DNA of 35,529 nucleotides from a virus (taxonomy: Duplodnaviria; Caudoviricetes). Positions 2,793 through 35,529 of this stretch are shown piece by piece. The stretch is from positions 1 to 35,529 of IMG/VR virus record IMGVR_UViG_3300011339_000471, one strand, 5' to 3'. The position numbers and the translations under genes are program-made. The notes below the pieces were generated by a model that was given only the letters and a program-made list of their open reading frames with translations, made no database searches and was not told the origin of the DNA. How positions within the stretch are numbered: the stretch's first letter is position 1; the number at the start of each line of letters is the position of its first letter.

Positions 2793-2823
2793 CATCGAAG
2801 GGCAAGAAGCCCGACGAAGAAAC
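2793..2823 (+). promoter_or_regulatory. Conserved structured 5' leader, copy 1
   Basis: TCG-AA-GGGC-AAGAA-GCCC-GA-CGA; same geometry as the copy at 28992. Confidence 0.55.
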
Positions 2824-2841
2824 CTAAAAAGAAAAAATAAA

Positions 2842-2967
2842 ATGAAAAACGAAACAACAGACCACACGATCAACACCGACTCCCTAGAAGAACTCCGCGC
2901 AATCGAAGAATCACGGCTTGATTATATGGATGCCTGTGATTGCTGCTGGGAGGACTCAGCAGAATAA
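2842..2967 (+). CDS. Small acidic protein (41 aa, MKNETTDHTINTDSLEELRAIEESRLDYMDACDCCWEDSAE), moron-like
   Basis: Translated by hand (not in the ORF track); A-rich start region; flanked by a putative promoter and a terminator. Confidence 0.6.
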   Translation: MKNETTDHTINTDSLEELRAIEESRLDYMDACDCCWEDSAE

Positions 2968-2975
2968 AACCAACC

Positions 2976-3011
2976 GGCGCGGGTTCAATCCCCGCGCCTT
3001 TTCTTTTTTTT
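2976..3011 (+). terminator. Intrinsic terminator
   Basis: GGCGCGGG-ttcaatc-CCCGCGCC 8-bp stem followed by a long T tract. Confidence 0.85.
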
Positions 3012-3029
3012 GACATCGCCATCAAATGA

Positions 3030-3278
3030 ATGGCGATGAACAAATCATTTTTTGGCCTGCCGCTTGCAACTCTGCAAGAATTGCAGGGCGACTTTACGGC
3101 GTGCTTAAAGGCGATCGCCGTTGCCGGCGCTTCGTATAGCATCGCGGGACGCTCGTTCACTCGCGCTAATCTTGCCGAGGTCGCACAGACGATCAAAGAA
3201 TTGCAGGCCGCTATTGACAACGCCAGCGGATCACGTATAAGGAAATTCACGCCGACGTTTCCAACACAGCGCCCATAA
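3030..3278 (+). CDS. Head completion/head-tail joining protein (gpW-like)
   Basis: Small protein between TerL and portal with GASYSIAGRSFTRANLAEV motif; stop overlaps the portal start. Confidence 0.75.
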   Translation: MAMNKSFFGLPLATLQELQGDFTACLKAIAVAGASYSIAGRSFTRANLAEVAQTIKELQAAIDNASGSRIRKFTPTFPTQRP

Positions 3279-5329
3279 TGCAAGACATCATCACCAAAGC
3301 ACTTTCTCTTGTATCGCCCAAGGCCGCGCTGGATCGCATGGTTAACCAAGCGAAGTTACGCAATTTCGGGCGCTTCGACTCAGCGTTGACGAGCGAAAAG
3401 CGCGGGATCAGTCGCGGGGTTAGCGGCGGTGAAGACACAGCAGGAACACGCGAACGCTTCGCTCTTATTCGGGCCGCTCGCGATCTTGCCGACAACTTTC
3501 CGCCTGTCCGTTCGCTTCTTCTCAAATTTGCAACCTACGTTTCGGGGCGCATCGCATACCAAGCCCGCACCGGCGATCACGAAGTTGATACCAAGATCGA
3601 GAAATATTGGCAGAAGTGGTGCGACAACTGTGATTTCTTGGGGCGTCACAACTTCACAACGCTTTTACAGCTTGCTGTGACAGCAATGCTGCGCGATGGC
3701 GACTGCGGGTTCATCATCGTTCGAGATGGAGAAGATTTAAAACTGCAAAGCGTCGAAGCCGACCGCATCGGCTCACCTTACGACAGAACAGACACCGACA
3801 AATACATCGGCGGAATAAATGTAGACGACTATGGAAGACCCGTTTCATACACAATTTTTACGCGCACTATCAATAACCAGTATATTTCTCCTACTGATAT
3901 TGTTGCAAAAGAGTTTATCCACCTTTTCGATGCAGCGCGACTTGACGAATACCGTGGGCGGTCTGCTTTCGCTACTGCGCTAAACGCAACCCGTGATCTG
4001 CAAGAAGCGATAAAGGCCGAAGTGCAAGCGATCAAATACGCTTCATACCAAAGCGGAGTCATCACGACCGAGAGTGGAGCCGCAGACGCTGGCGATTACT
4101 TCGCTCGCGGCAACTCGAACGATCAAGGACAGGTCGCACGCTTGCAGTCGCTCGATCCTGGCACGGTCAACTATCTGACCGCCGGCGAGAAGATGGAGAT
4201 GTTCAAGAGCGACCGACCAACGGGTGCATTCGGTGAATTTATCCGGCTCATTCAAGCTCATATTTGCATGAGCGTCGGGCTTCCTTACGGCTTCGCTTTC
4301 GATGCCGATAAGAGCGGTCCAATGGCACGCATGGAAGCGGCAATGGCAGAGCGCACGTTCTTGCGGTGGCGGGGACTTCTCGAAGGTCAATTTCTCAATA
4401 GGATAAAAAACATTATTCTTCTCGACGCCGCCGCTCGCGGACTCGTTCCCGATTCGGAGTTTCTTCTCGACGGTCGCTGGTGCTGGCCAGCCAAGGTTTC
4501 GATCGACTACGGACGCGAAGCCAATGCTGATATCAACCTTTGGAAGGCAGGACTGAAAACCGCAGGACAGATTTACTCCGACATGGGCGAAGACTACGAA
4601 GAAGCACTTCGCGCACGGGCGAAGGAAAGCGCGATGATCGTATCGCTTGCAAACGAGATGGATATTCCTGCGGAATACATCTCGGATTCTATCACTCCCA
4701 TTCAAGCCGCCGCGCCTATAGCAGCGCCTATTGTGCAAGAAGAGCCACAGACTGAGCCAATACAGACAGAACAACCGAAGCAAGTCGATCTAGCAGACGA
4801 GAACAAGCCAAGCAAGGGCATGATCGAAGAAGCCTTGAAAGGCCTAGCATGGCGCGAAGAGCACAATCGAGGCGGAACAGCCGTAGGCGTTGCACGCGCT
4901 CGCGACATTTCAAACGGCAAGAACCTTTCCGACGATACGGTGAAGCGGATGCACTCCTACTTTTCACGGCACGAAGTTGATAAAAAGGGACAGGGTTTTC
5001 AACAAGGGGAGGACGGCTTCCCATCCGCAGGTCGCATTGCATGGGCATTGTGGGGCGGAGACGCAGGACAAGTATGGGCCGCTGATAAAGTCAAAGGGAT
5101 ACAGGCATCGCAACCCGAACAGATGAAGGTATCGCTTGCCGTTCGCGATCCGTTCGGACGCATTACTGGCTTTGAAACAAAGCATGAGCTTGTCATGCCG
5201 ACGCCCGAAAGAAACGAAGAGCAAGACGACTTCATTGGCCGTTGCATGGTGAGCGGAACAATGACGAGCGAATATCCAGACGAGAGCCAGCGCGTTGCCG
5301 TATGCTCTGCACAATGGGAGAAAAAATAA
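3278..5329 (+). CDS. Portal protein, lambda family, with C-terminal extension
   Basis: Lambda-portal hallmarks (RAARDLADNFP, MLRDGDC, LQSVEADRI, GINVDDYGRPVSY, IHLFD...EYRG) and position; about 190 aa extra at the C-terminus. Confidence 0.92.
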   Translation: MQDIITKALSLVSPKAALDRMVNQAKLRNFGRFDSALTSEKRGISRGVSGGEDTAGTRERFALIRAARDLADNFPPVRSLLLKFATYVSGRIAYQARTGDHEVDTKIEKYWQKWCDNCDFLGRHNFTTLLQLAVTAMLRDGDCGFIIVRDGEDLKLQSVEADRIGSPYDRTDTDKYIGGINVDDYGRPVSYTIFTRTINNQYISPTDIVAKEFIHLFDAARLDEYRGRSAFATALNATRDLQEAIKAEVQAIKYASYQSGVITTESGAADAGDYFARGNSNDQGQVARLQSLDPGTVNYLTAGEKMEMFKSDRPTGAFGEFIRLIQAHICMSVGLPYGFAFDADKSGPMARMEAAMAERTFLRWRGLLEGQFLNRIKNIILLDAAARGLVPDSEFLLDGRWCWPAKVSIDYGREANADINLWKAGLKTAGQIYSDMGEDYEEALRARAKESAMIVSLANEMDIPAEYISDSITPIQAAAPIAAPIVQEEPQTEPIQTEQPKQVDLADENKPSKGMIEEALKGLAWREEHNRGGTAVGVARARDISNGKNLSDDTVKRMHSYFSRHEVDKKGQGFQQGEDGFPSAGRIAWALWGGDAGQVWAADKVKGIQASQPEQMKVSLAVRDPFGRITGFETKHELVMPTPERNEEQDDFIGRCMVSGTMTSEYPDESQRVAVCSAQWEKK

Positions 5330-5742
5330 TGATCACACAAGGAATTGCACTTGAAGCAAAACGCGCCCTGATGACCGGCGTCCATCAACCTAACGACGAC
5401 TACCGCATTGCGCTCTACTCGGCATCTGCAAAGGTCGGGCCACAAACGAAAACCTACGTCACCGAAGGTGAAATTAAAGGCAAAGGCTACAAGGCCGGAG
5501 GCGTCAAGCTCAAGGGATTCCGAACCGGCATCATCGGCAAAAATGCCTTTATGACGTTCGACGATGTCGAACTAAAGAGCGCAACATTCTCAACCGGCGG
5601 GGCGCTCGTCTATAATGCCAGCAAGGGAAACGCCACATTGTGCGTCCTCAACCTCGGCGGCGAGCGTCATGTATTCGACGGCGCATTTGAACTTAAATTC
5701 CCCAAGCCAACCGAAACCAACGCATTGATTTTACTCGCTTAA
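5329..5742 (+). CDS. Putative virion structural protein
   Basis: Start at 5329 overlaps the portal stop (TAATG); YRIALY...GYKAGG...GALVYN pattern resembles common phage virion proteins. Confidence 0.65.
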   Translation: MITQGIALEAKRALMTGVHQPNDDYRIALYSASAKVGPQTKTYVTEGEIKGKGYKAGGVKLKGFRTGIIGKNAFMTFDDVELKSATFSTGGALVYNASKGNATLCVLNLGGERHVFDGAFELKFPKPTETNALILLA

Positions 5743-5744
5743 AT

Positions 5745-6026
5745 ATGAAACCGACCAACCCAATTATTATCGACGGCGAAACCTACGATCTCTATACGCT
5801 CAATCTAGCAGTCACTTCAAAGTATCTTGGCAACGGAGGCGAAGACGCCAGCATTGCAATGCGCCTCGTGCCGACGCGAATAGACAACGGCCAAGTCATA
5901 ACAGCAGATGCCGAAGCTCGCGGACTCTCTATCGGAACGCTTGAGGGGGCGGATGCAGTAACAACACAAACAGCGCTTTCAATTCAAGTCGCGCTTCAAA
6001 CATTTATTGACGCGAAAGGACTCTAA
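5745..6026 (+). CDS. Hypothetical protein (virion gene region)
   Basis: Tightly packed ORF in the head gene cluster. Confidence 0.7.
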   Translation: MKPTNPIIIDGETYDLYTLNLAVTSKYLGNGGEDASIAMRLVPTRIDNGQVITADAEARGLSIGTLEGADAVTTQTALSIQVALQTFIDAKGL

Positions 6027-6029
6027 GCG

Positions 6030-7343
6030 ATGGCAAATTATCGCGCCGTAGCATCTGGGAACTGGAGCGCAGGAGCAACATGGGGAGGCGGGGCAGTCCC
6101 GCCAAATGCTGCTGGGCATAACATATATTCAAATACATTCACGGTCACCGTAGATACAAATGTGGATGTCGCATTGGTTACGAATGCAGCAAACGCAGGA
6201 ACATTTGTTGGTGGTGGAACTGCCGCCGCTGGAGGTGGATTTACTCTTTCTAATGGTATTACATTGACGTCTTCAAATGTTACTCTTGGAACAACCGCAA
6301 CATTGGTCACATTATCTAGCACAAATTCTGCTTCTATCGTCGGAAATATAAATGGAAGCAACAATAGTAATTTTTCTTGTGTAAATAATTCTGGAACTGG
6401 GACATTGACTATTACTGGTGTAATTACAGGAGGAAGCGCCACAAGCTCAAATGTGGGATGCAATAATTCAGGAAATGGCACAATAAATGTTACAGGTAGT
6501 ATTGTAGGGGGTTCCGTGGGTGCAGCGAATTACGCTCTTTCAAATTCATCTACAGGATCAATTACAATGACTGGGAGCGTTACAGGCGGGGCTACATCTT
6601 CTGGCGCAAACAATAGTTCAACAGGAACATTTACGATAATTGGAGATATTACAGCAACAAGTGCGGCAAATGGATTCACATCTGCAAATATAAGTTCAGT
6701 GAATCGACTATCAGGATCTTTTATTTCAGCGGCAAATGGAGTTTCTGCGATTTATGCTATAAAGTATTTTTTAAACACATCTCCAACATCCGCAAAAACT
6801 CGATATTCGTTGAACGGATCGAGCACATATCTGGATATGTTCACCGCAGACAATTCTCTAGGGCAGGCGAGCATTTCGGACGTTCGTTTCGGAACCGTCT
6901 ACGCAAGCGGAGCATTGACTGGGGTTGCATATATTCCAGCCGCAGGATCAGTTGCGGCAGGAACTCCAGTCGATAACACTGTAGGCACAGCAACATTAAC
7001 AGCCGCAAACGTCCGTGCTGCTCTAGGAATGGCAAGCGCAAATCTTGATACGCAACTTGCCGCAATACCTACTGCAATAACAAATGCTGCCGCCGTCAGG
7101 ACTAATCTAGCAACCGAACTCGGGCGCATCGATGCGACAATTTCAAGCCGGTCAACATTGACCGCCGCAAATGTTCGCACCGAACTCACTCCAGAACTTA
7201 CGCAAGTTACCGAGGTTCACAAAATTCACGGTCTCGATATCGCAAACGCGCTCACGGTAACGCCAACGCTACGCTCGGCGGGAGCGATCACGCAAGCGAT
7301 CACCGGAGACGGAACCACAAGCACGATAGTCACGCGAGTCTAA
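6030..7343 (+). CDS. Gly/Ser/Thr/Asn-rich beta-helix-like virion fibre/appendage protein
   Basis: Repeated NNSGTGTLTITG-like units, twice TLTAANVR; AT-rich core. Confidence 0.65.
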   Translation: MANYRAVASGNWSAGATWGGGAVPPNAAGHNIYSNTFTVTVDTNVDVALVTNAANAGTFVGGGTAAAGGGFTLSNGITLTSSNVTLGTTATLVTLSSTNSASIVGNINGSNNSNFSCVNNSGTGTLTITGVITGGSATSSNVGCNNSGNGTINVTGSIVGGSVGAANYALSNSSTGSITMTGSVTGGATSSGANNSSTGTFTIIGDITATSAANGFTSANISSVNRLSGSFISAANGVSAIYAIKYFLNTSPTSAKTRYSLNGSSTYLDMFTADNSLGQASISDVRFGTVYASGALTGVAYIPAAGSVAAGTPVDNTVGTATLTAANVRAALGMASANLDTQLAAIPTAITNAAAVRTNLATELGRIDATISSRSTLTAANVRTELTPELTQVTEVHKIHGLDIANALTVTPTLRSAGAITQAITGDGTTSTIVTRV

Positions 7344-7346
7344 CGC

Positions 7347-7790
7347 ATGATCGCATCCCTGCTCATCGCAACGCAGGGCTTATTGCCAAGCCCATCGCCG
7401 CTCTCAATCGGCGTGCAGGGTTTGCTATTCATTCCAGTCGCGCCACCTATTGCTCCGACCGATCTTCCTGGCGGTGGCGGACGTCGAGACGAGCGAAGGG
7501 TTACGCTTTACGCTCTTGGAAACCGACTCCGATATTCGGTCGGGAGCGTCGATATCAGCGCAGGAACGCGGATAAATGTAACAGGGAGCGCGTTTAATTC
7601 TCGCACGTCCGACGCTTCGCTTTCGATCAGCGCAAGCACGACAGCAAAAGGCAACCGCAACCACGCCGGAACGGGTCGCGCAGGGATCTCGATCTCATCC
7701 ACGTTCGACATTGTCGGGTGCGAAGAAGAGAACGAACTTGAAGTCTATTTAATGGCACAAGCGGCGATGGAATTGATGGACAGCATTTGA
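7347..7790 (+). CDS. Hypothetical protein
   Basis: Tightly packed ORF just before the protease/scaffold gene. Confidence 0.65.
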   Translation: MIASLLIATQGLLPSPSPLSIGVQGLLFIPVAPPIAPTDLPGGGGRRDERRVTLYALGNRLRYSVGSVDISAGTRINVTGSAFNSRTSDASLSISASTTAKGNRNHAGTGRAGISISSTFDIVGCEEENELEVYLMAQAAMELMDSI

Positions 7791-7805
7791 CATCCGCGCC
7801 TTCGC

Positions 7806-8663
7806 ATGGATGTGATCGAAGGCGTTTCAATTATTTCAATCGGCGAAGCAAAAGGCCACGGTCTTTATGTGGACGAGCAGACTTTGATGGAAGTCAAAGA
7901 GTGCGCAGAGTCATACAAGGGCGGCGTGAAGGTCAACCTAGACCACGGCGCAGGCATTAAAGACATCGTTGGATTCGTAAACAATTTTCGCATCGTCGGA
8001 TCGCAGCTTCTCGGCGATCTCAACCTTCTCGAAACATCGCCCATGCGCGACTACGTCCTAGAGATTTCAAGCAAACTCCCCGACACGTTCGGTATCAGCA
8101 TCGCTTTTAGTGGCCCGATTCGCGAACTTGACGGAATGGCATTCGCAAGTTGCACGGAGCTCTACAGCGCCGATCTCGTGCAAACTCCAGCCGCAAATGC
8201 AACTGGGCTTTTCAGTTTTACCGCCAAGCAAGTTGACAATTTTTCCCAACAAATGGAAGACGCAACAATCGAAATCGAACCCAAGGAGGACGAGGTCAGC
8301 ATCGCCGACATCGTTTCTCGTCTCGCCGCTCTTGAAACCGCCTTCGGCGACTACAAGAACAAAATGGAAGTGCCAGCCGAAGAGCCAGCCGCCGAGCCTA
8401 TGAAAGAAGAAATGGCCGCTGAACTCAGCGCAATTTCCAAGCTCGAAGCCAAGCTCGATACGATCATTTCGAACTTCGGAGCCGCTCCAGTTAAGGCTTC
8501 GGTTGTCGCTGAAGAGAAAGCCGAAGAGAAATTCGATCTCAAAGCAATCATCACCCAAAAGACCGAGGAACTCGGCAGCCGCACTGAAGCCATCCGCTTC
8601 GCAATGCGCAATCACCGCGAAGCCTACATCGAGGCCCGCGATAACAACCAACTCAATTTTTAA
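7806..8663 (+). CDS. Capsid maturation protease/scaffold fusion
   Basis: N-terminal domain with GEAKGH, VNLDH, FGISIAF and ADLVQTPAAN motifs; acidic coiled-coil C-terminus; upstream of the decoration and capsid genes. Confidence 0.75.
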   Translation: MDVIEGVSIISIGEAKGHGLYVDEQTLMEVKECAESYKGGVKVNLDHGAGIKDIVGFVNNFRIVGSQLLGDLNLLETSPMRDYVLEISSKLPDTFGISIAFSGPIRELDGMAFASCTELYSADLVQTPAANATGLFSFTAKQVDNFSQQMEDATIEIEPKEDEVSIADIVSRLAALETAFGDYKNKMEVPAEEPAAEPMKEEMAAELSAISKLEAKLDTIISNFGAAPVKASVVAEEKAEEKFDLKAIITQKTEELGSRTEAIRFAMRNHREAYIEARDNNQLNF

Positions 8664-8675
8664 TCCAACTAATTT

Positions 8676-9035
8676 ATGGCAACACAAAATGACATGGGGA
8701 TTCGGAGCTTTGCCTTCGCTTCTGCCATCACCGCGAATACGCTCGTCAACATCTCGGGCGATAACGCTGCGCAAGCAGCATCAACCGGCGCTAATGCCAT
8801 CGGAGTCGTCCAGAATGACGTTGCCGCTGGTCAACAAGGCGCTGTCAAACTTTTCTTCCCTTCACAATTCGGCATCGTGTCCGCGATCGTGACAGCCGGT
8901 AACACCGTTTATGCGGTGACCAACGGCTTGATCCTCGGCACATACGCCAACGCTTCGACTGTGACTCTTGGAGTCGCGATCAACAGCGGCGTAGCCGGTG
9001 ACGTTGTGGAATACGTTCCTAAATTCAACCAATAA
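8676..9035 (+). CDS. Capsid decoration/cement protein (DUF2190-like)
   Basis: 119 aa, Ala/Gly/Val-rich (AIGVVQNDVAAG, LGVAINSGVAGDVVE); directly before the major capsid gene. Confidence 0.75.
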   Translation: MATQNDMGIRSFAFASAITANTLVNISGDNAAQAASTGANAIGVVQNDVAAGQQGAVKLFFPSQFGIVSAIVTAGNTVYAVTNGLILGTYANASTVTLGVAINSGVAGDVVEYVPKFNQ

Positions 9036-9047
9036 TTTAACACTACT

Positions 9048-10001
9048 ATGGCACTCTCATACACAACCATCCGCGCTGATATTGCGCAGGCCGTTTTTGA
9101 AGGTCTTTCCAACAAAAACAATTTGTTCATCGGAACCGAAGTCATGCCCGTGTTCAGCTCAGACGTTCGCTCCGGCGCATATCTGAAATTGAACCTCGGC
9201 GACTCCGAAGCCCTCAACGACGACGCGCTCAAGATCGCCGCTGGTGCTGGATATCCACGCACAAGCCGCCGCTTCACAAGCGACTCGTTTGATGCTATCG
9301 AGTACGGTCTCGAAGAGGTTCTTCCTGACTCCAACCGCCGCGATCTCGACAGATTCTTCGACACCGAAGTGAACATTGCCGCAATGCTCCTTCGCCAGAT
9401 CCAAGTCAGCCACGAGGCTCGTGTTGCTTCCGCAGCATTCGCCGCCAACGGTTTGACCGCGATCAGCGCATCGGCAGCATACACCGACGCGAACATCACA
9501 TCGTTCGACGTTCCAGGTGACGTGGCTCAAGCCAAACTCGAACTCGCCAAATACGGCGTGCTCGCGAACACCTTGATCATGTCCATGCCTGTATTCGAGC
9601 GCATCCGCCGCTCTGCCAAGGTTCAGAACCAGTTCTTCGGCATTGTTCCTTCGGATCAAAGCCGTCTCTTGAGCGAAGGCGAAGTTGCCGCCGCTGTCGG
9701 AGTTGACCGCGTTCTCGTAGGCCGCGCACCCAAAAACACAGCCAAAAAAGGCCAAGTATATTCGGGTGGGTTCATCTGGAGCAACACCTACATGGCACTT
9801 GCCAACACGGTTGGTGGAGACTTCTCCGGTGGTGGATTCGGTCGCACTATCGTATGGGCCGCAGACAGCCCCGTGCCTTTCGTCTCCGAAACCTATCGCG
9901 ACGAAGCCCGCCGCGCTGACGTTCTCCGCGTTCGTCAGAACAGCGCCGAGAAAGTCATCGACGGTTCTAGCATCATCCGCATCACAACCGGATACGTGTA
10001 A
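9048..10001 (+). CDS. Major capsid protein (gpE-like, HK97 fold)
   Basis: Size, position, FIGTEVMPV and ETYRDEARRADVLRVRQ motifs; followed by a terminator. Confidence 0.85.
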   Translation: MALSYTTIRADIAQAVFEGLSNKNNLFIGTEVMPVFSSDVRSGAYLKLNLGDSEALNDDALKIAAGAGYPRTSRRFTSDSFDAIEYGLEEVLPDSNRRDLDRFFDTEVNIAAMLLRQIQVSHEARVASAAFAANGLTAISASAAYTDANITSFDVPGDVAQAKLELAKYGVLANTLIMSMPVFERIRRSAKVQNQFFGIVPSDQSRLLSEGEVAAAVGVDRVLVGRAPKNTAKKGQVYSGGFIWSNTYMALANTVGGDFSGGGFGRTIVWAADSPVPFVSETYRDEARRADVLRVRQNSAEKVIDGSSIIRITTGYV

Positions 10002-10024
10002 GATTCCCCGCAAGTAAGCATCGG

Positions 10025-10054
10025 AAAAGCCACCTCGAAAGGGGTGGCTTTTTT
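10025..10054 (+). terminator. Intrinsic terminator after major capsid gene
   Basis: AAAAGCCACCTC-gaaa-GGGGTGGCTTTT stem-loop followed by a T tract. Confidence 0.9.
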
Positions 10055-10085
10055 GTTTTTGTTGACATATGCGTCATGTGTAAAC

Positions 10086-11759
10086 ATGAAACAAAAAACG
10101 AAGCTAGTCGCAGGCTTAATTTGCGGCAACGAAGAGCCGCGCATCGCTCGATGCGTTAAGTCACTCCAACAGATATGCGACGAGATCGTTGTCGTCCGCG
10201 CAATCGGAGCACTCAAGCCAGATCGCACGCTAGAAATAGCGAAAGAACTCGGATGCCATGTTGACGAATATCTCAACTCTCCGCTTGTGGCCGACTGGGA
10301 ACATCTCGACAATTTCGGCGAAGCCAGGAACAAAGCATTTGCGAAAGCCTACGAACTAGCCGGTAAGGAAGGCTGGGTAATGTGGGCAGACTGCGATGAC
10401 GTTATTGAGCCGCACATGGTCGCGCCTACATTGGCCGCGCTTGAAGAATGCCCACCAGAGCAGGACTGGATCTTGACCGACTACGTTATTCCCGAACAAG
10501 GGAAACGCGCACCGAGAGAGCGTTTCTTCCGATATAAGACGGCATGGTGGCATCGTCCGGTTCACGAAAACGCGCAGCCTACAAAGGACGTGCAGGTCTA
10601 TATGCGCCGCGATCTTGAAATCATACACCAACCGCCGCTCGGTCATCGCAACAGCAGCGAGCGCAACCGTCGCATCTTAATGCATCAAGATAGGATGACT
10701 TCGCATTTCAAATTCTATTTGCACTACGAGAACTTCATTGCCGACAACAAGGAACTCGCCGCGAAATACGGCTCCGAAGCATTGGCGTTAAGCGATCTGG
10801 ACGGCGTTAACCGCTACGAAGTATTGTTAAACTGTGCTAACCTGACATCAGGCGCAACATCGCTCACCCTTGCACGCAAAGCGAGAGAGCTTGAGCCAAA
10901 ACGCCGCGAAGCCTACGGACTTGAGGCCAGCATTCTGCTTGACGACAAAAAATACCAAGATGCGCTGAAAGTGGTAGAAGAAATGCTCGAAGTGCCAACT
11001 CCTAAGTTTCCGCAATGGACGCACCGCAAGGAGTGGTATGGATGGAAGGGCGATCAACTCTACGCTTGGGTTCTCCGACTTCTCGGACGCAACGAAGACG
11101 CCGAAGAGATCGAGCGCGAAACGCTGGCAGGATCGAACAAGCCCAAGATTTCTCTCGTCCACGCAACGCGAGGAAGGCCCGTGCAGGCCGTTCAATGTAT
11201 GACGTTATGGCTTTCCCGCGCAACGCATCCAGAGCGCGTGGAACATATCTTTGCAGTCGATCACGACGACGACACAGCGGACGTGCTCCAACGCTTTCGA
11301 TCTGTGACGCAAAAAGACCAAGGGTATTCTGTCGGGGCTTGGAACTTGGGGGCAGCCAAGGCGTCGGGGGATATTATTATACAATTATCGGACGATTGGG
11401 AGTGTCCGCCAGGGTGGGACGAGATGGTAGAAAAGCGTCTCGACATTTCGCAGCCGCAGGTGCTTCGGATATCGGATGGCTATCGCAAAGACGAATTACT
11501 TTGCATGGCGATTTTAACGCGCAAATATTATGAGCAGCATGGACTATTCAACCCAAGATTCCGAAATGTATACAGCGACACCGATTTCACCTTTCGTGCC
11601 GCGAAAAATGGGGCGATTGTTGATGCTCGTGATATTGCTATCGTTCATCATCATCCGTTTTTTGAAGAGCGTCCGCTCGATTCGACATATCAGCGTGGAA
11701 ACGATCCGGCAGAATATGAAAGAGCGAAGGGAATTTTTGAAGAACTCCACGCAAAATGA
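10086..11759 (+). CDS. Two-domain glycosyltransferase (GT2 - TPR-like - GT-A)
   Basis: N-terminal GT2 (LICGNEEPRIARCVKS, NFGEARN, WADCDD, PVHE), helical TPR-like middle, second GT-A domain (ISLVHATRGRP, IIQLSDDW, YSDTDF). Start placed at ATG 10086 because the longer ORF runs back into the terminator. Confidence 0.88.
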   Translation: MKQKTKLVAGLICGNEEPRIARCVKSLQQICDEIVVVRAIGALKPDRTLEIAKELGCHVDEYLNSPLVADWEHLDNFGEARNKAFAKAYELAGKEGWVMWADCDDVIEPHMVAPTLAALEECPPEQDWILTDYVIPEQGKRAPRERFFRYKTAWWHRPVHENAQPTKDVQVYMRRDLEIIHQPPLGHRNSSERNRRILMHQDRMTSHFKFYLHYENFIADNKELAAKYGSEALALSDLDGVNRYEVLLNCANLTSGATSLTLARKARELEPKRREAYGLEASILLDDKKYQDALKVVEEMLEVPTPKFPQWTHRKEWYGWKGDQLYAWVLRLLGRNEDAEEIERETLAGSNKPKISLVHATRGRPVQAVQCMTLWLSRATHPERVEHIFAVDHDDDTADVLQRFRSVTQKDQGYSVGAWNLGAAKASGDIIIQLSDDWECPPGWDEMVEKRLDISQPQVLRISDGYRKDELLCMAILTRKYYEQHGLFNPRFRNVYSDTDFTFRAAKNGAIVDARDIAIVHHHPFFEERPLDSTYQRGNDPAEYERAKGIFEELHAK

Positions 11760-12076
11760 GTGATCGACCAACACCAGAAACAGACGACATCGCGCGAGGA
11801 AATCATGTCGTTCCGACCGAGTGGGCGAAGCAACTAGAACGCGAGCGCGACAAGGCAAATGAAGAACTTCATAAACAGCTTGTTCGATATGACCAGTTGT
11901 TTGACGAGGCAGAAAAAATCAGGATCGAGCGCGACGAGGCGAGAAGAAAGTTGAACAACTTAGATGTTACCGCAATCCATTCGTGTCACAACGAATGCCA
12001 AAGGCCGATCTGTGTTCTGCGTAGAGAGCGCGACGAGGCTAGGGAGGCATTAAACAAAATATTAAAAAATGAATAA
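11756..12076 (+). CDS. Coiled-coil protein with ERDEAR repeats
   Basis: ERERDKA, IERDEAR and RERDEAR repeats; overlaps both neighbours. Confidence 0.7.
   Translation: MSDRPTPETDDIARGNHVVPTEWAKQLERERDKANEELHKQLVRYDQLFDEAEKIRIERDEARRKLNNLDVTAIHSCHNECQRPICVLRRERDEAREALNKILKNE
11843..12039 (+). repeat. Three 14-nt direct repeats GAGCGCGAC(A/G)AGGC
   Basis: Copies at 11843, 11927 and 12026. Confidence 0.8.
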
Positions 12077-12653
12077 AGATGTCACTCTCATCGTCTTTGA
12101 AGGATTAAAATCAAGGCACGAGCAAAGCGAGAAGCTATTTAAACACCTTTGCGGATTGGGTGGATTCGGTGATGCCGTTTACATCGCCGAAGACTGCACA
12201 TACCAACAAGCGATGCATTGGGAGCTGGGCCGCTTTGCCGACTATTTCGACACGTCGCACGCGCTCATCTGCACGCACGATGGGTTTATTGCAAATCCGC
12301 ATCTATGGAATGATTCATGGCTCGAATACGACATGATCGGAGCGCCTTGGCCTGCGTTTTGGAACGTCGGACATCGCGTCGGCAATACAGGATTTACACT
12401 CCAAAGCCAAAAGTTTTTACAGATGGCAGCAAAGGCCGAAGCGCTTTGGAAGGGCGAGGCAGGAGATGTTTTCTTGTGTCGCACAATGGAGCAAGGTTTT
12501 CGAGATAACGGCATCAAATATGCGCCAGTGAATGTTGCGGCGGCATTCTCGTGGGAACATTTCATTGAAGAAAATACAGCTGGGCCGGATCGCTCCTTCG
12601 GTTTCCACGGGTGGGTGGCAGGGAAAACGCGCGAACAATATTACACGTTTTGA
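12069..12653 (+). CDS. DUF5672-like putative glycosyltransferase
   Basis: LICTHDGFI, YDMIGAPW, VGNTGFTL and FGFHG motifs typical of this GT-A-like family. Confidence 0.75.
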   Translation: MNKDVTLIVFEGLKSRHEQSEKLFKHLCGLGGFGDAVYIAEDCTYQQAMHWELGRFADYFDTSHALICTHDGFIANPHLWNDSWLEYDMIGAPWPAFWNVGHRVGNTGFTLQSQKFLQMAAKAEALWKGEAGDVFLCRTMEQGFRDNGIKYAPVNVAAAFSWEHFIEENTAGPDRSFGFHGWVAGKTREQYYTF

Positions 12654-13312
12654 ACATCCTAATTGTTTACCATTTGCGTCTCGGAGACATCGCGCGGTGC
12701 TTACCGATAGCGAAACATTTCGCGGATCAAGGCCACAACGTGATGTTTGAATGCCTGCCGGAGTATCACGGTCTTTTCGAGATGGTCGATTATTGCAAGC
12801 CGCTTTATCCACAGAACGATCACAGCGGATTTCACCGCATCATCAACTTGCAAATATGGCCAGACTTGCACGAAGACTTTTGCGCGAGTCCGCTGGGATG
12901 GAGCGACTATGTTTACGGGCTTTTTCCAGAAGGCAAAGATATCGACCGTCAGATCGTTCTCAACTCGCCCGCAATAGTTACACCGCCCGAACTAAAATCA
13001 TGGGTTCTTTGCTTTCCGACCGGATACTCGCAAGATAAAAAGATCGACGTTCGGGATGTTATCACCATCGCGCACCAAGTCGCGAACGGCAGGCCAGTTC
13101 TTTGCGCAGGAAAGGCCGCTCACGGCATGGCTGAGTTTGAAAGCATAGAATATATGTGTGCTTACATTCGGGACGCACTAGAAATGGTTACGATCAACAC
13201 AAGCACAAGCATCCTTGCATCCGCGCTCCGCAAAAGTTGGGTTCACATCGCGGACAGCCCGAAGCACGACTTCGCGCATCCAAACCAGCGGCGTGTAGAG
13301 CGCAAGTTTTGA
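12650..13312 (+). CDS. GT-B glycosyltransferase (GT9/heptosyltransferase-like)
   Basis: ILIVYHLRLGDIARCLPIAK N-terminus and TINTSTSILASAL late motif; TTG start at 12650 overlaps the upstream stop. Confidence 0.7.
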   Translation: MNILIVYHLRLGDIARCLPIAKHFADQGHNVMFECLPEYHGLFEMVDYCKPLYPQNDHSGFHRIINLQIWPDLHEDFCASPLGWSDYVYGLFPEGKDIDRQIVLNSPAIVTPPELKSWVLCFPTGYSQDKKIDVRDVITIAHQVANGRPVLCAGKAAHGMAEFESIEYMCAYIRDALEMVTINTSTSILASALRKSWVHIADSPKHDFAHPNQRRVERKF

Positions 13313-13327
13313 CGCATCGTCCCCTTT

Positions 13328-13636
13328 GTGGGACTGCTCGACATTTTTACGAACGATTTAAGCGCGATCATGAACGAACTGCCGTTGGCAGTTACGTTCG
13401 GAGAGCGCAATTTTCTCGCGAATCGGACAACATACCGTCGTGACAATAGCCTGGCTGACGGCGGATTTATGGATTCGGCATCCATGACCATTACGGCGAT
13501 CTACGACGCTTTCGTTCAGACTATTTCTCTCGGTGACGTTCTTATCATCGGGGGCCGGCGCTTTCGCGTTACGTCCGCAGAGCTTTCCCAAGACGCTGTC
13601 AGCGTCGATTTCACACTAGAGGACATTAACAAATGA
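13328..13636 (+). CDS. Head-tail joining (head closure) protein
   Basis: 102 aa, beta-rich, LGDVLIIGGRRFRV motif of gpFII-like proteins. Confidence 0.65.
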   Translation: MGLLDIFTNDLSAIMNELPLAVTFGERNFLANRTTYRRDNSLADGGFMDSASMTITAIYDAFVQTISLGDVLIIGGRRFRVTSAELSQDAVSVDFTLEDINK

Positions 13637-18233: not shown

Positions 18234-18481
18234 TAATTCAACCTAATGAAGATGGCTGGGCATTCGACGAGTCAACCGCATGGAAGCTGGTTTACGATGG
18301 AAGCACGATCATCTTTTTCGACGAAACAGAGAAAGCGATCTCGACGCAAAGCATGTTGTTCGTAGGAACAAAAGACGAATGCGGAGCAGAGATCGCGCGG
18401 CTTGGGCTTGTTGACGTTACCGCCCAAGAGAATGATAACGGACTCGACCTACACGCTGACGCTGGAGAAGGCGCTGACTGA
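18230..18481 (+). CDS. Hypothetical protein
   Basis: ATGA overlap with the adhesin gene. Confidence 0.6.
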   Translation: MIIQPNEDGWAFDESTAWKLVYDGSTIIFFDETEKAISTQSMLFVGTKDECGAEIARLGLVDVTAQENDNGLDLHADAGEGAD

Positions 18482-18878
18482 CACTTTCGTGCTTGCACTC
18501 CAGCAAGAGATGCAGAGCGCCCTTGTGGTAACGGCAGCGGAGAACTTCGGAACGATGACGCTTCCGGCGTGCTTCGTGAAATGCACTCGCCAGCGCGAGA
18601 GCATTATCGACTCCGCCATTTTCCAGTTCTCGGTCGATATCGCGTTGATCGTGCAGGCCGACGACATGGATCAAATGGCGATGGAGAACTTATGGTCGCA
18701 GGTGCTCTGTATTTCGCATGATATTACCGGCCTAAAGACAAAGCTCAACGCCGTCCGTCCGCAATATGCTTTCGTATTCGGCATCCTTCGAGACGGGCCG
18801 GTATCGATCTCGACAAACGAGCGGCACTTTGAGCGGTCGGTTACGATCACGGTGCACGCTGCACTTTTCGCGAGTTGA
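18432..18878 (+). CDS. Putative tail terminator/completion protein
   Basis: Directly before the tail tube gene; TLPACFV motif; ATG 18432 lies 21 nt after a TTGAC motif. Confidence 0.6.
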   Translation: MITDSTYTLTLEKALTDTFVLALQQEMQSALVVTAAENFGTMTLPACFVKCTRQRESIIDSAIFQFSVDIALIVQADDMDQMAMENLWSQVLCISHDITGLKTKLNAVRPQYAFVFGILRDGPVSISTNERHFERSVTITVHAALFAS

Positions 18879-18896
18879 CAATTTCCACGAAATATC

Positions 18897-19262
18897 ATGC
18901 CAGCAACCGTCATCACATCATCCGTAGCGTCCGGCGTTGAGTTCGGACTCCTTCAAGAAACTGGGCTTTTGCTCAACTCATTCTCTCGATCCGTTCAGAG
19001 CGATAAAGCAACTGTAATGGACGCGCTCGGCGATACCGTTGCCGTGGCTTACTTCAACAAGACTGCCACGATCTCGCTCGACGGTGTTGTAAATGGTGGA
19101 GTCGCATACGAACTCGCCAACATCCTCACCCTCGCCAACGATACGACATCCTATGGCGTTTCCGGTGGTGCAGTTATCGTCGATTCCGTTTCCGAAAAGA
19201 CAGGCGCCGGCACGTTCAAAACGATCACCGTTTCCGCTACTCAATACCCCGAGATCGTCTAA
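18897..19262 (+). CDS. Major tail (tube) protein
   Basis: Small beta-rich Thr/Ser/Val protein followed by a terminator-like hairpin, chaperone genes and tape measure. Confidence 0.65.
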   Translation: MPATVITSSVASGVEFGLLQETGLLLNSFSRSVQSDKATVMDALGDTVAVAYFNKTATISLDGVVNGGVAYELANILTLANDTTSYGVSGGAVIVDSVSEKTGAGTFKTITVSATQYPEIV

Positions 19263-19281
19263 GCAACTGGCTCATGCCGTT

Positions 19282-19313
19282 GGCTCCCCGGCTAAAGGGA
19301 GCCGCCTTTTTTT
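19282..19313 (+). terminator. Probable intrinsic terminator after tail tube gene
   Basis: GGCTCCC-cggctaaa-GGGAGCC stem followed by gcc and a T7 tract. Confidence 0.65.
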
Positions 19314-19319
19314 AAATAT

Positions 19320-19718
19320 ATGGACGCAAACAAGAAATTCTTTCACACGATCAACTTAAAAGCCGCCGTCGCACTCGCGACAATGGGCTTCAAAATGAAC
19401 TTCCCACCGGTCACTCGACTGGTTCGCACCGACGGCAAGGAGTCCACGGAGTTCTGGTTTGAGGGAGAGAACGACAAGGGCCAAGACGCTTCACAAGTCT
19501 ATCGCCAGATGACCAAAGAAGGCGACGAACTCGAAGCCAAAGAGCCAGAGAACCCGCTCTGTTACATCCGCGCCGCATTAGCCAACCGCGACGTCTTGGT
19601 GGACATCATCCGCAATACTCCGCGCTTGATCGAGATCGAGCACAACGGCAAACGCATTGCCATCAGCGAGCACGCTTCGGACAAGACGAAGCAAGAAATG
19701 ACCAGATTTTTGAAATAA
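19320..19718 (+). CDS. Hypothetical protein (tail region)
   Basis: 132-aa ORF; stop overlaps the next start. Confidence 0.7.
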   Translation: MDANKKFFHTINLKAAVALATMGFKMNFPPVTRLVRTDGKESTEFWFEGENDKGQDASQVYRQMTKEGDELEAKEPENPLCYIRAALANRDVLVDIIRNTPRLIEIEHNGKRIAISEHASDKTKQEMTRFLK

Positions 19719-20119
19719 TGAAAAAGACACAAAACACAGACCTAGTAAAAGACGACGAAATTCTTCGCATTCAAGCAATGGAGGATGGGCCGAAGAAGGT
19801 GAACGGACGCATCCTGCGACCCATCACGGCGCTTACAATTAGTTGGATGCAACGCAATGAGGTATTTTCTGGCGATATGGATCCAGTTTGGAAGGCGGCA
19901 GCATTTACTTTCCTTCACTCCGAACCAATGAGCACGATCCGTGGGGCCGTCAATGACCGCGACACGTTCATCAACGCCGTCGATTCTTGGATCGAGAAGA
20001 ACATGAGGCATCATCATGAGACTGGCGCAATGTCGGAAGCGATGGGTGCGGCATTTGATCTTTACAATTCCGCTTCTCCAGCATCGGAAGCCGGTGAAGG
20101 CTCAGGAAGCCCAAACTAA
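19718..20119 (+). CDS. Tail assembly chaperone (gpG-like)
   Basis: Between tube and tape measure genes; ends in slippery heptamer C CCA AAC directly before its stop. Confidence 0.75.
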   Translation: MKKTQNTDLVKDDEILRIQAMEDGPKKVNGRILRPITALTISWMQRNEVFSGDMDPVWKAAAFTFLHSEPMSTIRGAVNDRDTFINAVDSWIEKNMRHHHETGAMSEAMGAAFDLYNSASPASEAGEGSGSPN

Positions 20120-20367
20120 ACAGCCCCAACTGGCTTGCTATCTACGCCTACCGGCTAGTCAAGATAACGGGTTGGGGCTTTCGAGAGATCATGGAAGAAC
20201 TGCCATTCGCGGCAGGGCTTCAACTCCTGCACGCTGACGACTACGCCAACGGCAGGCATTCAGCCTGGGCTAACAACAACTCCCGAGTTGATGTTGACGC
20301 TCTCGCCACGATAGAGCAAACGCTCGCAAAACATGGCAAAATTCAAATTCGAGAGTCTGAAATTTGA
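20110..20367 (+). CDS. gpT-like extension reached by -1 frameshift (gpGT about 216 aa)
   Basis: The -1 frame reads LNSPNWLAIYAYRLVKITGWGFREIMEELPFAAGLQLLHADD...RESEI* with no start codon near its 5' end; not in the ORF track. Confidence 0.75.
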   Translation, partial: PKLNSPNWLAIYAYRLVKITGWGFREIMEELPFAAGLQLLHADDYANGRHSAWANNNSRVDVDALATIEQTLAKHGKIQIRESEI

Positions 20368-21187
20368 GCAGATAATGAAGGACTACGCGACCATTCGCGA
20401 GGTCACGATCCCTGACGCCGTTATGCTCAACGCTCGCCTTCTTTGCGTGGAGTTGGCTAGGCGAACGCAGCCGTTTGGCATAGACGATAAAGCGAAACTA
20501 ACGGGCGAAAAGGCGATCACTCGCGATCTTGTTGGGGGTAGATCATCAAGCGCCGTGCATTCGACTCGGCGTATTGGTATCTTTGGCATCATCGGCGACG
20601 CAATGAATATCGCAGGTGGCTATGCTTGGTATAAAACAGGCGAGAACGTCCGCTTATTTATCGGGAAAGACGGATACGCCTACGGAACAGAGAAGAGCTA
20701 TTTTCGGCCAGATGCGTCGCAGTCTGATATGCGATCCTTCCACAAAAAGTTTTTTGTGAATGGCAAAATGTCATCAGCAGGATCACGGGATCGGACTATC
20801 GGACGCTGGAAGTTTTTGGATAAAATGTTTGTTAGCGAAGCTACGATGAACTCTTACAAAGAATCTGTCTTGAAAAAGGTAGGTATCGCCAAGGCAGGAT
20901 GGGCATCGTGCGCACTCAAGCTCAAAAAAGTTAACAAGGGAAGCCTAACCGCAGGCTTCCCGAAATGGGTCACAAGACATACCGGCGACTTCGACAACGG
21001 GCGAGTGCAGGACATGACATCGGACTTAAAAAATCCAAGGGTTGAACTAATAAACAAGACGCCTTGGGCAAGTAATGTTATTCCAGAATCTGAAAAGGAA
21101 TTTGCCAAGGCCGTCATCGTTGCAAAGATGAAAAAGCAAATGGAAGCAATATTAAAAAAGAGACAAAAAGGGCTTATAGAAACATAA
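20333..21187 (+). CDS. Basic virion morphogenesis protein (HK97 gp10/neck-like)
   Basis: Lys/Arg-rich, ARRTQP and GIAKAGW motifs; tail region. Confidence 0.55.
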   Translation: MAKFKFESLKFEQIMKDYATIREVTIPDAVMLNARLLCVELARRTQPFGIDDKAKLTGEKAITRDLVGGRSSSAVHSTRRIGIFGIIGDAMNIAGGYAWYKTGENVRLFIGKDGYAYGTEKSYFRPDASQSDMRSFHKKFFVNGKMSSAGSRDRTIGRWKFLDKMFVSEATMNSYKESVLKKVGIAKAGWASCALKLKKVNKGSLTAGFPKWVTRHTGDFDNGRVQDMTSDLKNPRVELINKTPWASNVIPESEKEFAKAVIVAKMKKQMEAILKKRQKGLIET

Positions 21188-21191
21188 TATC

Positions 21192-23582: not shown

Positions 23583-23586
23583 AGAT

Positions 23587-24321: not shown

Positions 24322-24569
24322 ACGACTTCCCAGTTGATTTTCAGACCGTAGCAAAGGGGGGGCAACAATTAAAGCCGATCTCGTCATCTGATCTTATGCG
24401 AAATTTCGCTTGGGCAAAATTGCAAGCCGATCCGACGCTTGTTGAGGAGGTCGCTTCGATGGGATTCACCGGCTTCAAGCTCAAGATTCCACCAGTCCCA
24501 GGCGGCGGCACATACGTCCTCGGCGCGGTGGATGGCGCGCTCACTTGGCTCTCCACCGAAGAATGCTAA
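24318..24569 (+). CDS. Small tail-region protein
   Basis: ATG at 24318 overlaps the upstream stop; MNDFPVDF...WLSTEEC. Confidence 0.65.
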   Translation: MNDFPVDFQTVAKGGQQLKPISSSDLMRNFAWAKLQADPTLVEEVASMGFTGFKLKIPPVPGGGTYVLGAVDGALTWLSTEEC

Positions 24570-24570
24570 A

Positions 24571-24930
24571 ATGACTCTAGGCCGCACACCAGAAGGCGTG
24601 ATCAAGATCAAGACCGACGAAGAAGGTGGCGGCCTTCGCGCGGTGAATTGCGCGTGTTGTGTGACATGCGAATTGACTTGCTCATGCAGTCCTTTTTGTG
24701 GGTTTACTCAAATTCAAGTGCAGGGCGGAGAGATTTTAGATGGTTGCAATGATGGTTCTTTTTTTTGCGATTTATTTTCATGGAGCAAAGTCGGATATGG
24801 CTCCGTAGATTTAGATACCAGTAACATGATTGCATCTTGCAACATTACTGGTTTCGGGTTTGGCCTTTTATTGGGAACGACATCACCTTATGGAACCTAC
24901 TCAAACGGAGTTACAATCATTCCGGTCTAA
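24571..24930 (+). CDS. Cys-rich tail-region protein
   Basis: ATG 2 nt after the previous stop; NCACCVTCELTCSCSPFC. Confidence 0.6.
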   Translation: MTLGRTPEGVIKIKTDEEGGGLRAVNCACCVTCELTCSCSPFCGFTQIQVQGGEILDGCNDGSFFCDLFSWSKVGYGSVDLDTSNMIASCNITGFGFGLLLGTTSPYGTYSNGVTIIPV

Positions 24931-25186
24931 ATTAAATCCAGAAATGTTTGAAAGATTGCTCAAATCTTTGAAGCGTTTTGCAGAAGCCGGAATGCCAAGT
25001 GTATCACCCGAAGCACTAGCCACCCGCGAAGCGACGTGCCGCTCATGTCTCGAATGGGACGCCGCCGCGCTGAACAACACGGGCCGCTGTCGCAAATGCG
25101 GGTGCAGCACTTGGGCAAAACTAAGAATGGCAACCGAAAGATGCCCGATAGGCAAATGGGAAGCTGTTGACAAAACACCCGAATAA
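24890..25186 (+). CDS. Cys-rich small protein (CxxC...CxxCGC...CPxGKW)
   Basis: REATCRSC...RCRKCGC...RCPIGKW motif; start uncertain (24890 or 24944). Confidence 0.7.
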   Translation: MEPTQTELQSFRSKLNPEMFERLLKSLKRFAEAGMPSVSPEALATREATCRSCLEWDAAALNNTGRCRKCGCSTWAKLRMATERCPIGKWEAVDKTPE

Positions 25187-26491
25187 ATGGCACGCGACCT
25201 TTATATCGATATGACTAACCGCAGGCTGGCGACGAGCTTGACCAACCTTACGCCCTCAGCCGCTCCGCGCTTCATAAAAGGCGACAATGGCGCTATCAAC
25301 CTTTATTTTCTTGAAGCCACGGGCAACGTATCCGCACCTTTCAATGTTGTCGATATGACCGGAACTACGGTCAAATTTGGCGTAGGAACAAGGACGGGAA
25401 CGCCTGCCAGCGGAACTTTCACGCTCTCCTTCGGTGGCGAAACGAGCGGAGCAATAGGGTTCAGCGCAACCGCCGGCGCGATATCGTCCGCGCTCAACTC
25501 ACTCTCAGCAATTACGAGCATCGGTAAAGTGTCCGTTGACGGCACGATGGCAACGAACTTTGTCATTTCGTTTAACTCCGCAGGCACTCGTAGCGCGATC
25601 ACCGCGAACGTCTCGCATCTCATTCCGACCACATCGGCACTCATTGACGAGCGCATCGTCGGAGACGCCACGACAAACGAAATTCAAGAGTTGCAGTTGC
25701 GTCTTGCGCCTGCCGTTTATCAGCCAACTTGGACTGATCTAGGCACGGCCTTAACCGTTAGCGTCGCCACGACATTAACCGGATCGACACTCCAAAACGA
25801 AGTGCAGCGCATCTCATTTTCGCGTCCTCCCTACCAAGGCAGTTATCGCGTAACCGTGCCGACATACAACGTGGACATCGCCTCGACCGTCACGGATGGC
25901 GTATTTATTACGTCAAGCAACCACGGACTGACGCTCGCTCAGCCAGTTGTATTAACGGGCTTCACGGCGTTGACCGGCTACACGGCAGGCATCCAGTATT
26001 TCGTTCGATCAATTCCGCAAACGACCGAGTTTTTGCTCGGCGTAACAGCGGGAGCAACCGCGATCACAACCGGCACAGGCACGGTAACAACGGGAAGCGT
26101 CGCAACAACCGTCCTACGTCAGACCGACCCTCTCGACGCGAGCACAACAGCATCGGGACTACAATCAGCCTTGCAGGCGCTCGACTCTATCGGCCTCGGC
26201 AATGCGACCGTGAGCGGCATCCAAGGCAGTTACTACGACGTGACGTTCGGAGGCAGCAAAAGCTTTGCTGACCTTCCTACACTTCAGACGCAAAGCGGCT
26301 TGAGCGCGGCGGCGGGTAAGACGGCATCGGTCAACTTCTCGACCTTTGGCGTGCGCGACTATTTGCTAAATGCAACGAATGCGACCGCCGATCTGGAGAT
26401 CGAACTCACCGAAAGCGGAGAGCGCAACACGATAATTCTTCAGCAATGCACACTCACCGAGGAACTCATAACGCAAGCCAGCTTGACATAA
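25187..26491 (+). CDS. Virion structural protein (tail tip/fibre anchor)
   Basis: Thr/Ser-rich, NEIQEL and NEVQRI repeats, last gene before the lysis cassette. Confidence 0.65.
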   Translation: MARDLYIDMTNRRLATSLTNLTPSAAPRFIKGDNGAINLYFLEATGNVSAPFNVVDMTGTTVKFGVGTRTGTPASGTFTLSFGGETSGAIGFSATAGAISSALNSLSAITSIGKVSVDGTMATNFVISFNSAGTRSAITANVSHLIPTTSALIDERIVGDATTNEIQELQLRLAPAVYQPTWTDLGTALTVSVATTLTGSTLQNEVQRISFSRPPYQGSYRVTVPTYNVDIASTVTDGVFITSSNHGLTLAQPVVLTGFTALTGYTAGIQYFVRSIPQTTEFLLGVTAGATAITTGTGTVTTGSVATTVLRQTDPLDASTTASGLQSALQALDSIGLGNATVSGIQGSYYDVTFGGSKSFADLPTLQTQSGLSAAAGKTASVNFSTFGVRDYLLNATNATADLEIELTESGERNTIILQQCTLTEELITQASLT

Positions 26492-35410: not shown

Positions 35411-35529
35411 ATGGCAATTTTAAAACGAGAAGAATCAGCAACAAGGTCGGCAGTCCCGACAGCGCCGAGTGCGGAGAAAGCGGCGATCTCGATCCTACTC
35501 CAAAACTACGAAGTGCTCGACGCCGCGAA
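35411..35529 (+). CDS. dnaB: DnaB-like replicative helicase, N-terminus (partial, runs off window)
   Basis: MAILKREESATRSAVPTAPSAEKAAISILLQN resembles the DnaB N-terminal P....AE..vl..ll motif; purine-rich RBS; follows initiator and origin. Confidence 0.6.
   Translation, partial: MAILKREESATRSAVPTAPSAEKAAISILLQNYEVLDAA

Follow-up and report, generated by a model that had tools for sequence, protein, structure and literature searches.

A TTGAC(A/G) box close to late-gene start codons of tailed phages, a candidate compact promoter that co-occurs with a predicted helix-turn-helix activator

The window analysed here is the whole record IMGVR_UViG_3300011339_000471, a tailed-phage contig of 35,529 nucleotides (35.5 kb, 50% GC). 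All its called genes lie on the plus strand, in the order terminase, adaptor, portal, capsid, tail and lysis genes followed by genes of recombination and replication. The element under study is a short box, TTGAC followed by A or G (TTGACR), located 19-24 nt ahead of the start codons of several late genes (distances run from the first T of the box). A first-pass annotation had listed eight TTGACR copies and a TTGAT variant at 5725, and all nine coordinates and distances are correct. Its gene labels are secured to a different degree: those of the head-tail adaptor, glycosyltransferase and tail protein are supported by PHROG matches, the head closure label has a weak Pfam match only (E 0.035), and protease, tail terminator and tail tube gave no informative database match and are named by gene order. 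The sites and the hairpins next to them are given below, with conservation counted over the distinct upstream sequences of close relatives, in which TTGAC was sought at 19-26 nt.

2976..3008, plus strand: terminator-like hairpin and T run, directly 5' of the 3010 box.
3010..3015, plus strand: TTGACA box, 20 nt 5' of the head-tail adaptor ATG at 3030; kept in 19/19.
6007..6012, plus strand: TTGACG, 23 nt 5' of the ATG at 6030; kept in 0/2 distinct relatives.
7787..7792, plus strand: TTGACA box, 19 nt 5' of the ATG at 7806 of the putative protease/scaffold gene; kept in 38/38.
10022..10060, plus strand: terminator-like hairpin, 3' of the major capsid gene.
10062..10067, plus strand: TTGACA box, 24 nt 5' of the glycosyltransferase ATG at 10086; kept in 30/30, at 23-26 nt.
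13309..13314, plus strand: TTGACG box, 19 nt 5' of the GTG at 13328 of the putative head closure gene; kept in 38/38.
18411..18416, plus strand: TTGACG box, 21 nt 5' of the ATG at 18432 of the putative tail terminator gene.
18875..18880, plus strand: TTGACA box, 22 nt 5' of the ATG at 18897 of the putative tail tube gene.
20294..20299, plus strand: further TTGACG, a probable box, 39 nt 5' of the ATG at 20333; kept in 31/36.
25167..25172, plus strand: TTGACA box, 20 nt 5' of the tail protein ATG at 25187; kept in 35/35.

The placement of the box is far from random. TTGACR stands 19-24 nt ahead of 8 of the 54 gene starts (picked from the list of open reading frames by the analyst, after reading the first-pass annotation), where 0.3 is expected (P 8e-10), in agreement with the rough estimate of well under one given there. 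None of 5000 shuffles of the upstream regions reaches eight such placements, and TTGAC at 19-24 nt is the top of 52,020 five-mer by window tests (P 3e-8, about 0.002 after correction). The relatives give the same picture: the six sites at 3010, 7787, 10062, 13309, 18875 and 25167 are kept in every distinct relative, and five control genes have TTGAC in 0/159 upstream sequences. TTGAC and its distance are constant among relatives, while flanks and spacers change freely; even the hairpin at 2976..3008 is swapped for other sequence in some relatives retaining the 3010 box. The tube-gene box (18875) is kept in 34/34 relatives at 22, 21 or 19 nt, never shorter. The 18411 box is found at 21 nt in 24/39 relatives and at 34 nt in 8, and is missing from 7. 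The ATG at 7806, which heads the capsid block, has the start context G-2 C-1.

Two of the nine copies are not upheld. TTGACG at 6007 is an Ile-Asp codon pair of the upstream gene, unconserved and likely due to chance; the 5725 variant is never TTGAC in relatives (0/27), and TTGAT itself varies. The site at 20294, which the first list had missed, is probably a further box. It has a T-A step at +18/+19 from the box start and lies within coding sequence, so its conservation may be codon-driven. The sixth base of the box is A in 91-100% of the sites at 19-22 nt; in the window it is either A or G. The CGCC-like word once noticed a few nucleotides downstream is no feature of the family: neither a second spacer word nor an upstream binding site with family-wide conservation was found, and there is no further conserved base in the spacer or in the 12-15 nt upstream of the box.

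Close relatives of the window phage are abundant in IMG/VR (138 loci). For comparison the clade of the window (A) was set beside three further capsid clades (B, C and D). In clades A-C, after dereplication, the box-to-start distance stops abruptly at 19 nt on the short side: one site is found at 17 nt, none at 18, 47 at 19, 26 at 20, 10 at 21 and 20 at 22 nt, followed by a tail. The spacers of the tube gene contract from 22 to 19 nt and no further. At the 19-nt sites the base at -1 of the start codon is a pyrimidine in 26/29 dereplicated cases versus 118/246 at box-less starts (P 1.6e-5), and the independent prophage set described below shows the same in 20/22 sites at 19 nt. The bacterial transcription start element is Y-1 R+1 Y+2 (PMC12641261). 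Sites at 21-28 nt have a pyrimidine-purine (YR) step at +18/19 or +19/20 in 45/69 cases, the share at other spacer positions being about 44%.

No -10 element accompanies the box. At positions -12 to -7, the pair of A at +8 and T at +12 from the box start occurs in 4/70 sites at 19 nt. TANNNT 16-18 bp downstream of the box is absent in most of the 19-22-nt sites and would overlap the start codon. The stretch from -19 to +20 at the 19-20-nt sites folds more stably than at box-less starts (-7.2 versus -4.0 kcal/mol; 38 versus 281 sites; P 8e-5) and is poorer in A, as expected if this stretch lies outside the message.

Clade D and the host chromosomes served as controls. In clade D, TTGAC lies at 34-37 nt in 24 sites and at 19-22 nt in 3; 8/31 of the sites at 33-42 nt carry TANNNT after a 16-18 nt spacer, and some of these canonical sites precede gene families that are boxed in clades A-C (head closure, protease, tube). 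A re-specified compact box was not found in clade D, either per genome or pooled. In five chromosomes of the phylum Verrucomicrobiota, TTGACA-N13/14-ATG occurs 114 times, the control spacing 117 times and the canonical spacing 175 times. A host-wide compact box was rejected accordingly, and since the chromosomes show an excess at the canonical spacing but none at 19-20 nt, the compact layout is specific to phages. In one host genome (G267) 9/17 of the TTGACA-N13/14-ATG matches fall in three clusters, two of which are prophages with the activator gene described below. The box is confined to phage late genes, with the exception of integrase genes in the G267 and G174 prophages. There, integrase-like genes (L365 in G267, L371, L408 in G174) have TTGACG 19 nt 5' of the ATG within the near-palindrome TTGCCAGTTGACGTGGCAA, which could be an activator-controlled integrase promoter or a feature of the attachment site. 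Leaderless starts as such are not foreign to this phylum, as they make up 10-15% of starts in Akkermansia (PMC4782308). The window phage itself likely infects Verrucomicrobia; this is only likely because the support consists of three short binned contigs with capsid relatives in species genomes, two from Verrucomicrobia and one from another phylum.

Profile comparison of the gene families of 21 phage genomes (a partial set of 172 profiles) revealed one unnamed helix-turn-helix family that links clades A, B and C. Its gene, the candidate activator, is found between the replication genes and terS in clades A and B and just 5' of the adaptor and portal genes in clade C. The window has no copy because the contig is cut before it, as can be seen from the arrangement in complete relatives:

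35411..35529 of the window, plus strand: 5' part of a gene of 420 aa in relatives, which we take to be helicase-like; the contig ends inside it.
L308:11465-11902, minus strand: candidate activator gene of a complete clade A relative, following the 420-aa gene and preceding terS.
L307:10954-11391, plus strand: candidate activator gene of another complete clade A relative, in the same position.

The gene is present in 20/21 genomes of clades A-C and in 0/8 of clade D, which was negative again with a wider profile. A profile built from clades A-C only also matches two box-bearing G267 prophages (E 1e-10), and 179 proteins among 8000 scored are homologs at E 0.001. Among 50,697 records of cultured phages, two activator homologs gave no match; for the capsid, cultured phages gave one weak match. 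The two regulators suggested earlier, at 28590-28868 and 29189-29500, do not track the box: homologs of the former are confined to clades A and C, those of the latter to clade A.

The protein has 140-220 residues. Its N-terminus varies and is acidic or helical; a helix-turn-helix domain of three helices follows, and the C-terminal helix is basic. The homologs are about 20% identical to each other, and the box is still exactly TTGACA. The best structural matches of two predicted models are sigma region 4 (the top 11 rows at Z 5.2-6.0 for one, a best Z of 5.7 for the other), and the best profile match within host sigma-A is the region 4.2 helix. Sequence matches point the same way at low significance (Pfam Sigma70_r4, E 0.09; phrog_351, E 0.005; Atlas Sigma70_r4 clusters, 0.75-0.77), no Pfam or PHROG family passing the cut-off, and a search of PDB sequences with the activator profile returned generic helix-turn-helix rows only. 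No Pfam or PHROG match to region 2 was found in six homologs, the N-terminal part not having been folded and searched alone; in clade A only about 35 residues precede the helix-turn-helix domain. The activator is predicted to resemble a lone DNA-binding domain of a sigma factor. Modelling of the G249 activator together with the sigma-A of G249 gave a score of 0.01, which speaks neither for nor against a contact.

The activator gene is itself boxed at 19 nt in G433 (L418:12388), a possible positive feedback; in G249 and G300 (L409:6658; L413:10269) TTGACA precedes it by 36 nt. On one G300 contig (G300:C34, L413) two elements face each other, both having an activator homolog of their own as well as 19-nt boxes, and G001 has four homologs, which suggests that the activator is also carried by satellites or other mobile elements. 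In clade B a further family, F45 (e.g. L312-L319, L344), is a 98-aa helix-turn-helix gene with a normal leaderless TTGACA-16-TAGGNN promoter; in G416 and G413 it lies directly 5' of the activator gene, so that two promoter layouts occur in one genome.

The link of gene and box was put to a forward test in which host-phylum genomes were chosen by the activator gene alone. A homolog is present in 14/401 genomes, and 20 regions from 12 of these 14 contain 28, 9, 5 and 8 box sites at 19, 20, 21 and 22 nt, respectively, with at most 6 at any other distance. Boxes are seen in 9/12 genomes, mostly directly 3' of the activator gene and on the same strand. In 13 genomes without an activator match or with a weak one, prophage regions with distant capsid matches have isolated matches only and no box clusters. 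The three exceptions (G210, G213 and G081) are one near-identical prophage:

G210:C1:920039-935532 (L427, L491; also in G213 and G081): exception prophage, with the activator homolog antisense and 5' of terS.

Here GCAACG lies 19-21 nt 5' of five late genes, often with CCATTTGT-ATG behind it, and G-T stands ahead of the ATG in 4/5 sites in G210. Same-strand matches to GCAACG number 5 in the 15.5 kb of the prophage versus 73 in 3.3 Mb. The homolog of this prophage has a different reading helix, HKAAISR. Region 4.2 of host sigma-A is invariant in 29/29 sequences, all from genomes other than G210, G213 and G081. The changed box, the changed reading helix and the invariant sigma-A together make the phage protein the likelier reader.

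Taken together, we consider it fairly probable that the box forms a compact late promoter, that a lone phage protein resembling sigma region 4 reads it, and that host RNA polymerase starts about 19 nt past the first T. The hexamer TTGAC(A/G) would likely be its sole sequence element. The phage protein would bind it and recruit host polymerase, which would start at a purine about 19 nt downstream. The box would then occupy -19 to -14 and border the melted region on its upstream side, in the place of the extended -10 of a normal promoter. Genes with the box at 19 nt would be leaderless; a distance of 20-25 nt would leave a leader of 1-6 nt, and one of about 4-5 nt is predicted for the glycosyltransferase message (10086). 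The position of the activator gene between the replication genes and terS suggests that the late program would switch on once the activator is made. The non-canonical late promoter of the first-pass annotation, giving (nearly) leaderless messages with the help of a phage factor, is thus the best supported interpretation, inferred as it is from the features above; the translation signal named there as an alternative is disfavoured.

Several other explanations have to be weighed against this one. It may be that the same compact promoter is read by region 4 of host sigma-A, which the phage protein, as a decoy for the normal docking site of region 4, moves beside region 2. The box is the exact -35 word of sigma-A and is constant beside activators of such low identity, and in the Q-loading complex region 4 is indeed shifted to a -35-like site that adjoins region 2 on the upstream side (PMC9388147), by our own arithmetic at about -19 to -14. 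The Q case, however, retains a -10-like element, which is seen here in the above 4/70 sites, and the relocation leaves GCAACG unexplained in a lineage that is expected to have the same sigma-A helix as the others. We regard it as unlikely. Still somewhat less likely is a signal at the level of the message, where UUGAC about 19-25 nt 5' of the start is recognised by the ribosome or a phage protein, which opens GC-rich starts devoid of Shine-Dalgarno words. The box is tied to start codons in a window where such words are nearly absent (AGGAG ahead of 1/54 starts), boxed starts are more structured, which a translation activator could relieve, and start-associated sequences of cluster K mycobacteriophages have been proposed to act in translation (PMC3203893). 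A reading of DNA fits better the one-sided spacing with its tail to 39 nt, the pyrimidine at -1, the canonical promoters of clade D at some shared families and the helix-turn-helix partner. Moreover, UUGAC is not complementary to the 3' end of host 16S RNA, which keeps CCUCC in 3/3 genes read, and the spacer is 13-19 nt, not 3-12.

The box could also be an ordinary -35 element, transcription beginning about 16 nt inside the called gene and the true protein start lying further down. TTGACA is the consensus word, and some genes have a second in-frame ATG nearby (3036); however, relatives keep both the start codon at 19-22 nt and the frame behind it, TANNNT is missing after 16-18 nt in most sites and the tube gene lacks a second start near its beginning, which makes this very improbable. 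Chance combined with overlap of TGA stop codons holds true for 6007 and 5725, and three window copies do contain the upstream stop, as had been cautioned. The overlap explains nothing further: six sites are conserved in all relatives even where the stop differs (TTGAC is retained at 7787 in relatives whose upstream gene ends in TAA or is a different one), and the box recurs in other phage families and in prophages. For seven sites enrichment statistics and conservation refute this explanation, and its probability is negligible.

A number of observations weigh against the compact promoter read by the phage protein. Clade A, the window's own, shows no pyrimidine signal (3/5 versus 58/107, small numbers), and G at +17 tracks the box in prophages (11/12 at 20 nt) but not in clades A-C (2/26). 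Shine-Dalgarno-like words are present in 12/31 clade B spacers (24/83 at box-less starts), which speaks against leaderless messages because these would not need them. Most clade D genes lack any TTGAC, and clade D is a single branch on the terminase tree (quick, midpoint-rooted, 20/21 genomes), which allows its contrast to be counted a single time. Sequences of clades A-C and G267 went into the activator alignment, and matches there are partly by construction. The reading helices vary widely among homologs that all use TTGACA. The likeness to sigma region 4 is weak, with Z below 8 and within 1 Z of other helix-turn-helix folds and an hhalign probability of 4.7%, and Foldseek gave no match to the activator models at E 0.001. 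GCAACG is a single event and was first spotted by eye, the unbiased five-mer test giving P 2e-5 among 48,175 tests. The host is inferred from short binned contigs, 1/3 of them outside Verrucomicrobia. Finally, the chaperone gene at 19320 lies behind a terminator-like hairpin and has no box; the chaperone genes from 19320 on would need read-through or the downstream 20294 site. The hairpin itself (19281-19319, after the tube gene) stops 6 nt 5' of the ATG at 19320.

A small share of the capsid region is present in 22 RNA runs, in all of them as assembled contigs. RNA contigs of 6 distinct runs were compared at 2700-20600 and 18640-19090; such contigs cannot show starts or rank genes. Those of the tube gene begin at 18908, 18946 and 18978 in three runs. 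One of these three runs has a separate upstream contig, and a contig of a fourth run crosses the box.

Late gene control by a phage protein is known from several systems. The lambda Q complex has a 1-bp spacing; the P1 Lpa site lies near -22 with the -10 box retained; and in T4 MotA/AsiA sigma region 2 still reads the -10 box. A search of the open-access literature gave no description of the present element. Promoters of the sigma-70/sigma-A -35/-10 type (PMC12641261, PMC4782308) share with it the TTGACA word, the predicted YR start and the leaderless messages in Verrucomicrobia, and their layout is used by the clade D relatives and one clade B gene; here, in contrast, the box is about 16 bp nearer the start, has no -10, serves phage late genes only and is tied to a phage gene. 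The lambda Q-loading complex at PR' (PMC9388147) likewise places sigma region 4 on a -35-like word that borders the melted region on its upstream side, and has its phage gene just 5' of the late genes. Q, however, works at a single site, on an elongation complex that has paused, and uses a -10-like element and an upstream binding element of its own, whereas here there are many gene starts, no -10-like element and no conserved upstream site. Lpa of P1 (PMC10695390) is similar in serving many late promoters with one activator whose gene is 5' of the packaging genes, but it binds a 9-bp inverted repeat and not an asymmetric hexamer without -10. Sigma appropriation by T4 MotA/AsiA (PMC7403470) takes two proteins, and its box is not the host -35 word. 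The Thermus phage Lalka27a (bioRxiv 10.64898/2026.04.20.719267) has dense late promoters, leaderless transcripts, host polymerase and a suspected phage factor; its promoters, however, retain a TAGGGT -10, with mapped starts 6 nt downstream. The start-associated sequences (SAS) of cluster K mycobacteriophages (PMC3203893) are asymmetric repeats at a fixed place 5' of starts, with untested function; they differ in being 13 bp long, 3-7 bp from the start, containing AGGAG and standing on non-structural genes. The box is not a Shine-Dalgarno or SAS-type signal. It resembles an activator-dependent phage late promoter, with a co-occurring gene for a putative DNA-binding protein 5' of the packaging genes and restriction to late genes, minus the -10.

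Two further features of the window deserve mention. A fibre-like protein of 986 aa (15273-18233) has six passenger-associated transport repeats (Pfam PF12951); its region varies among relatives and is uncovered in the RNA contigs compared. Directly 3' of a short (~120 aa) replication initiator gene there are five 11-bp direct repeats (35228-35297), followed by TAGATAGATA palindromes and a 12-bp hairpin (35308-35382). The region 35228-35382 is likely the replication origin.

Sigma-70-type promoters of the cited papers open DNA via the -10 element. If the above interpretation is true, one hexamer beside the bubble together with an activator of 140-220 residues would give bacterial RNA polymerase a new mode of initiation. 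In a wider and tentative form, possible but short of probable, Verrucomicrobia phages of several unrelated head types would share a class of one-element promoters: a lone sigma-4-like protein as a minimal, reprogrammable sigma substitute, the hexamer at -19 to -14, a start of host RNA polymerase on the start codon, no -10, and a box that changes (TTGACA to GCAACG) with the reading helix. A test system would be at hand in one small gene, a 25-bp promoter and two natural specificities. The box would also be a marker for true start codons, and may serve as an orthogonal switch of very small size in a phylum for which genetic tools are scarce. For the phages themselves, the finding would explain late-gene control in abundant freshwater phages and in many Verrucomicrobia prophages.

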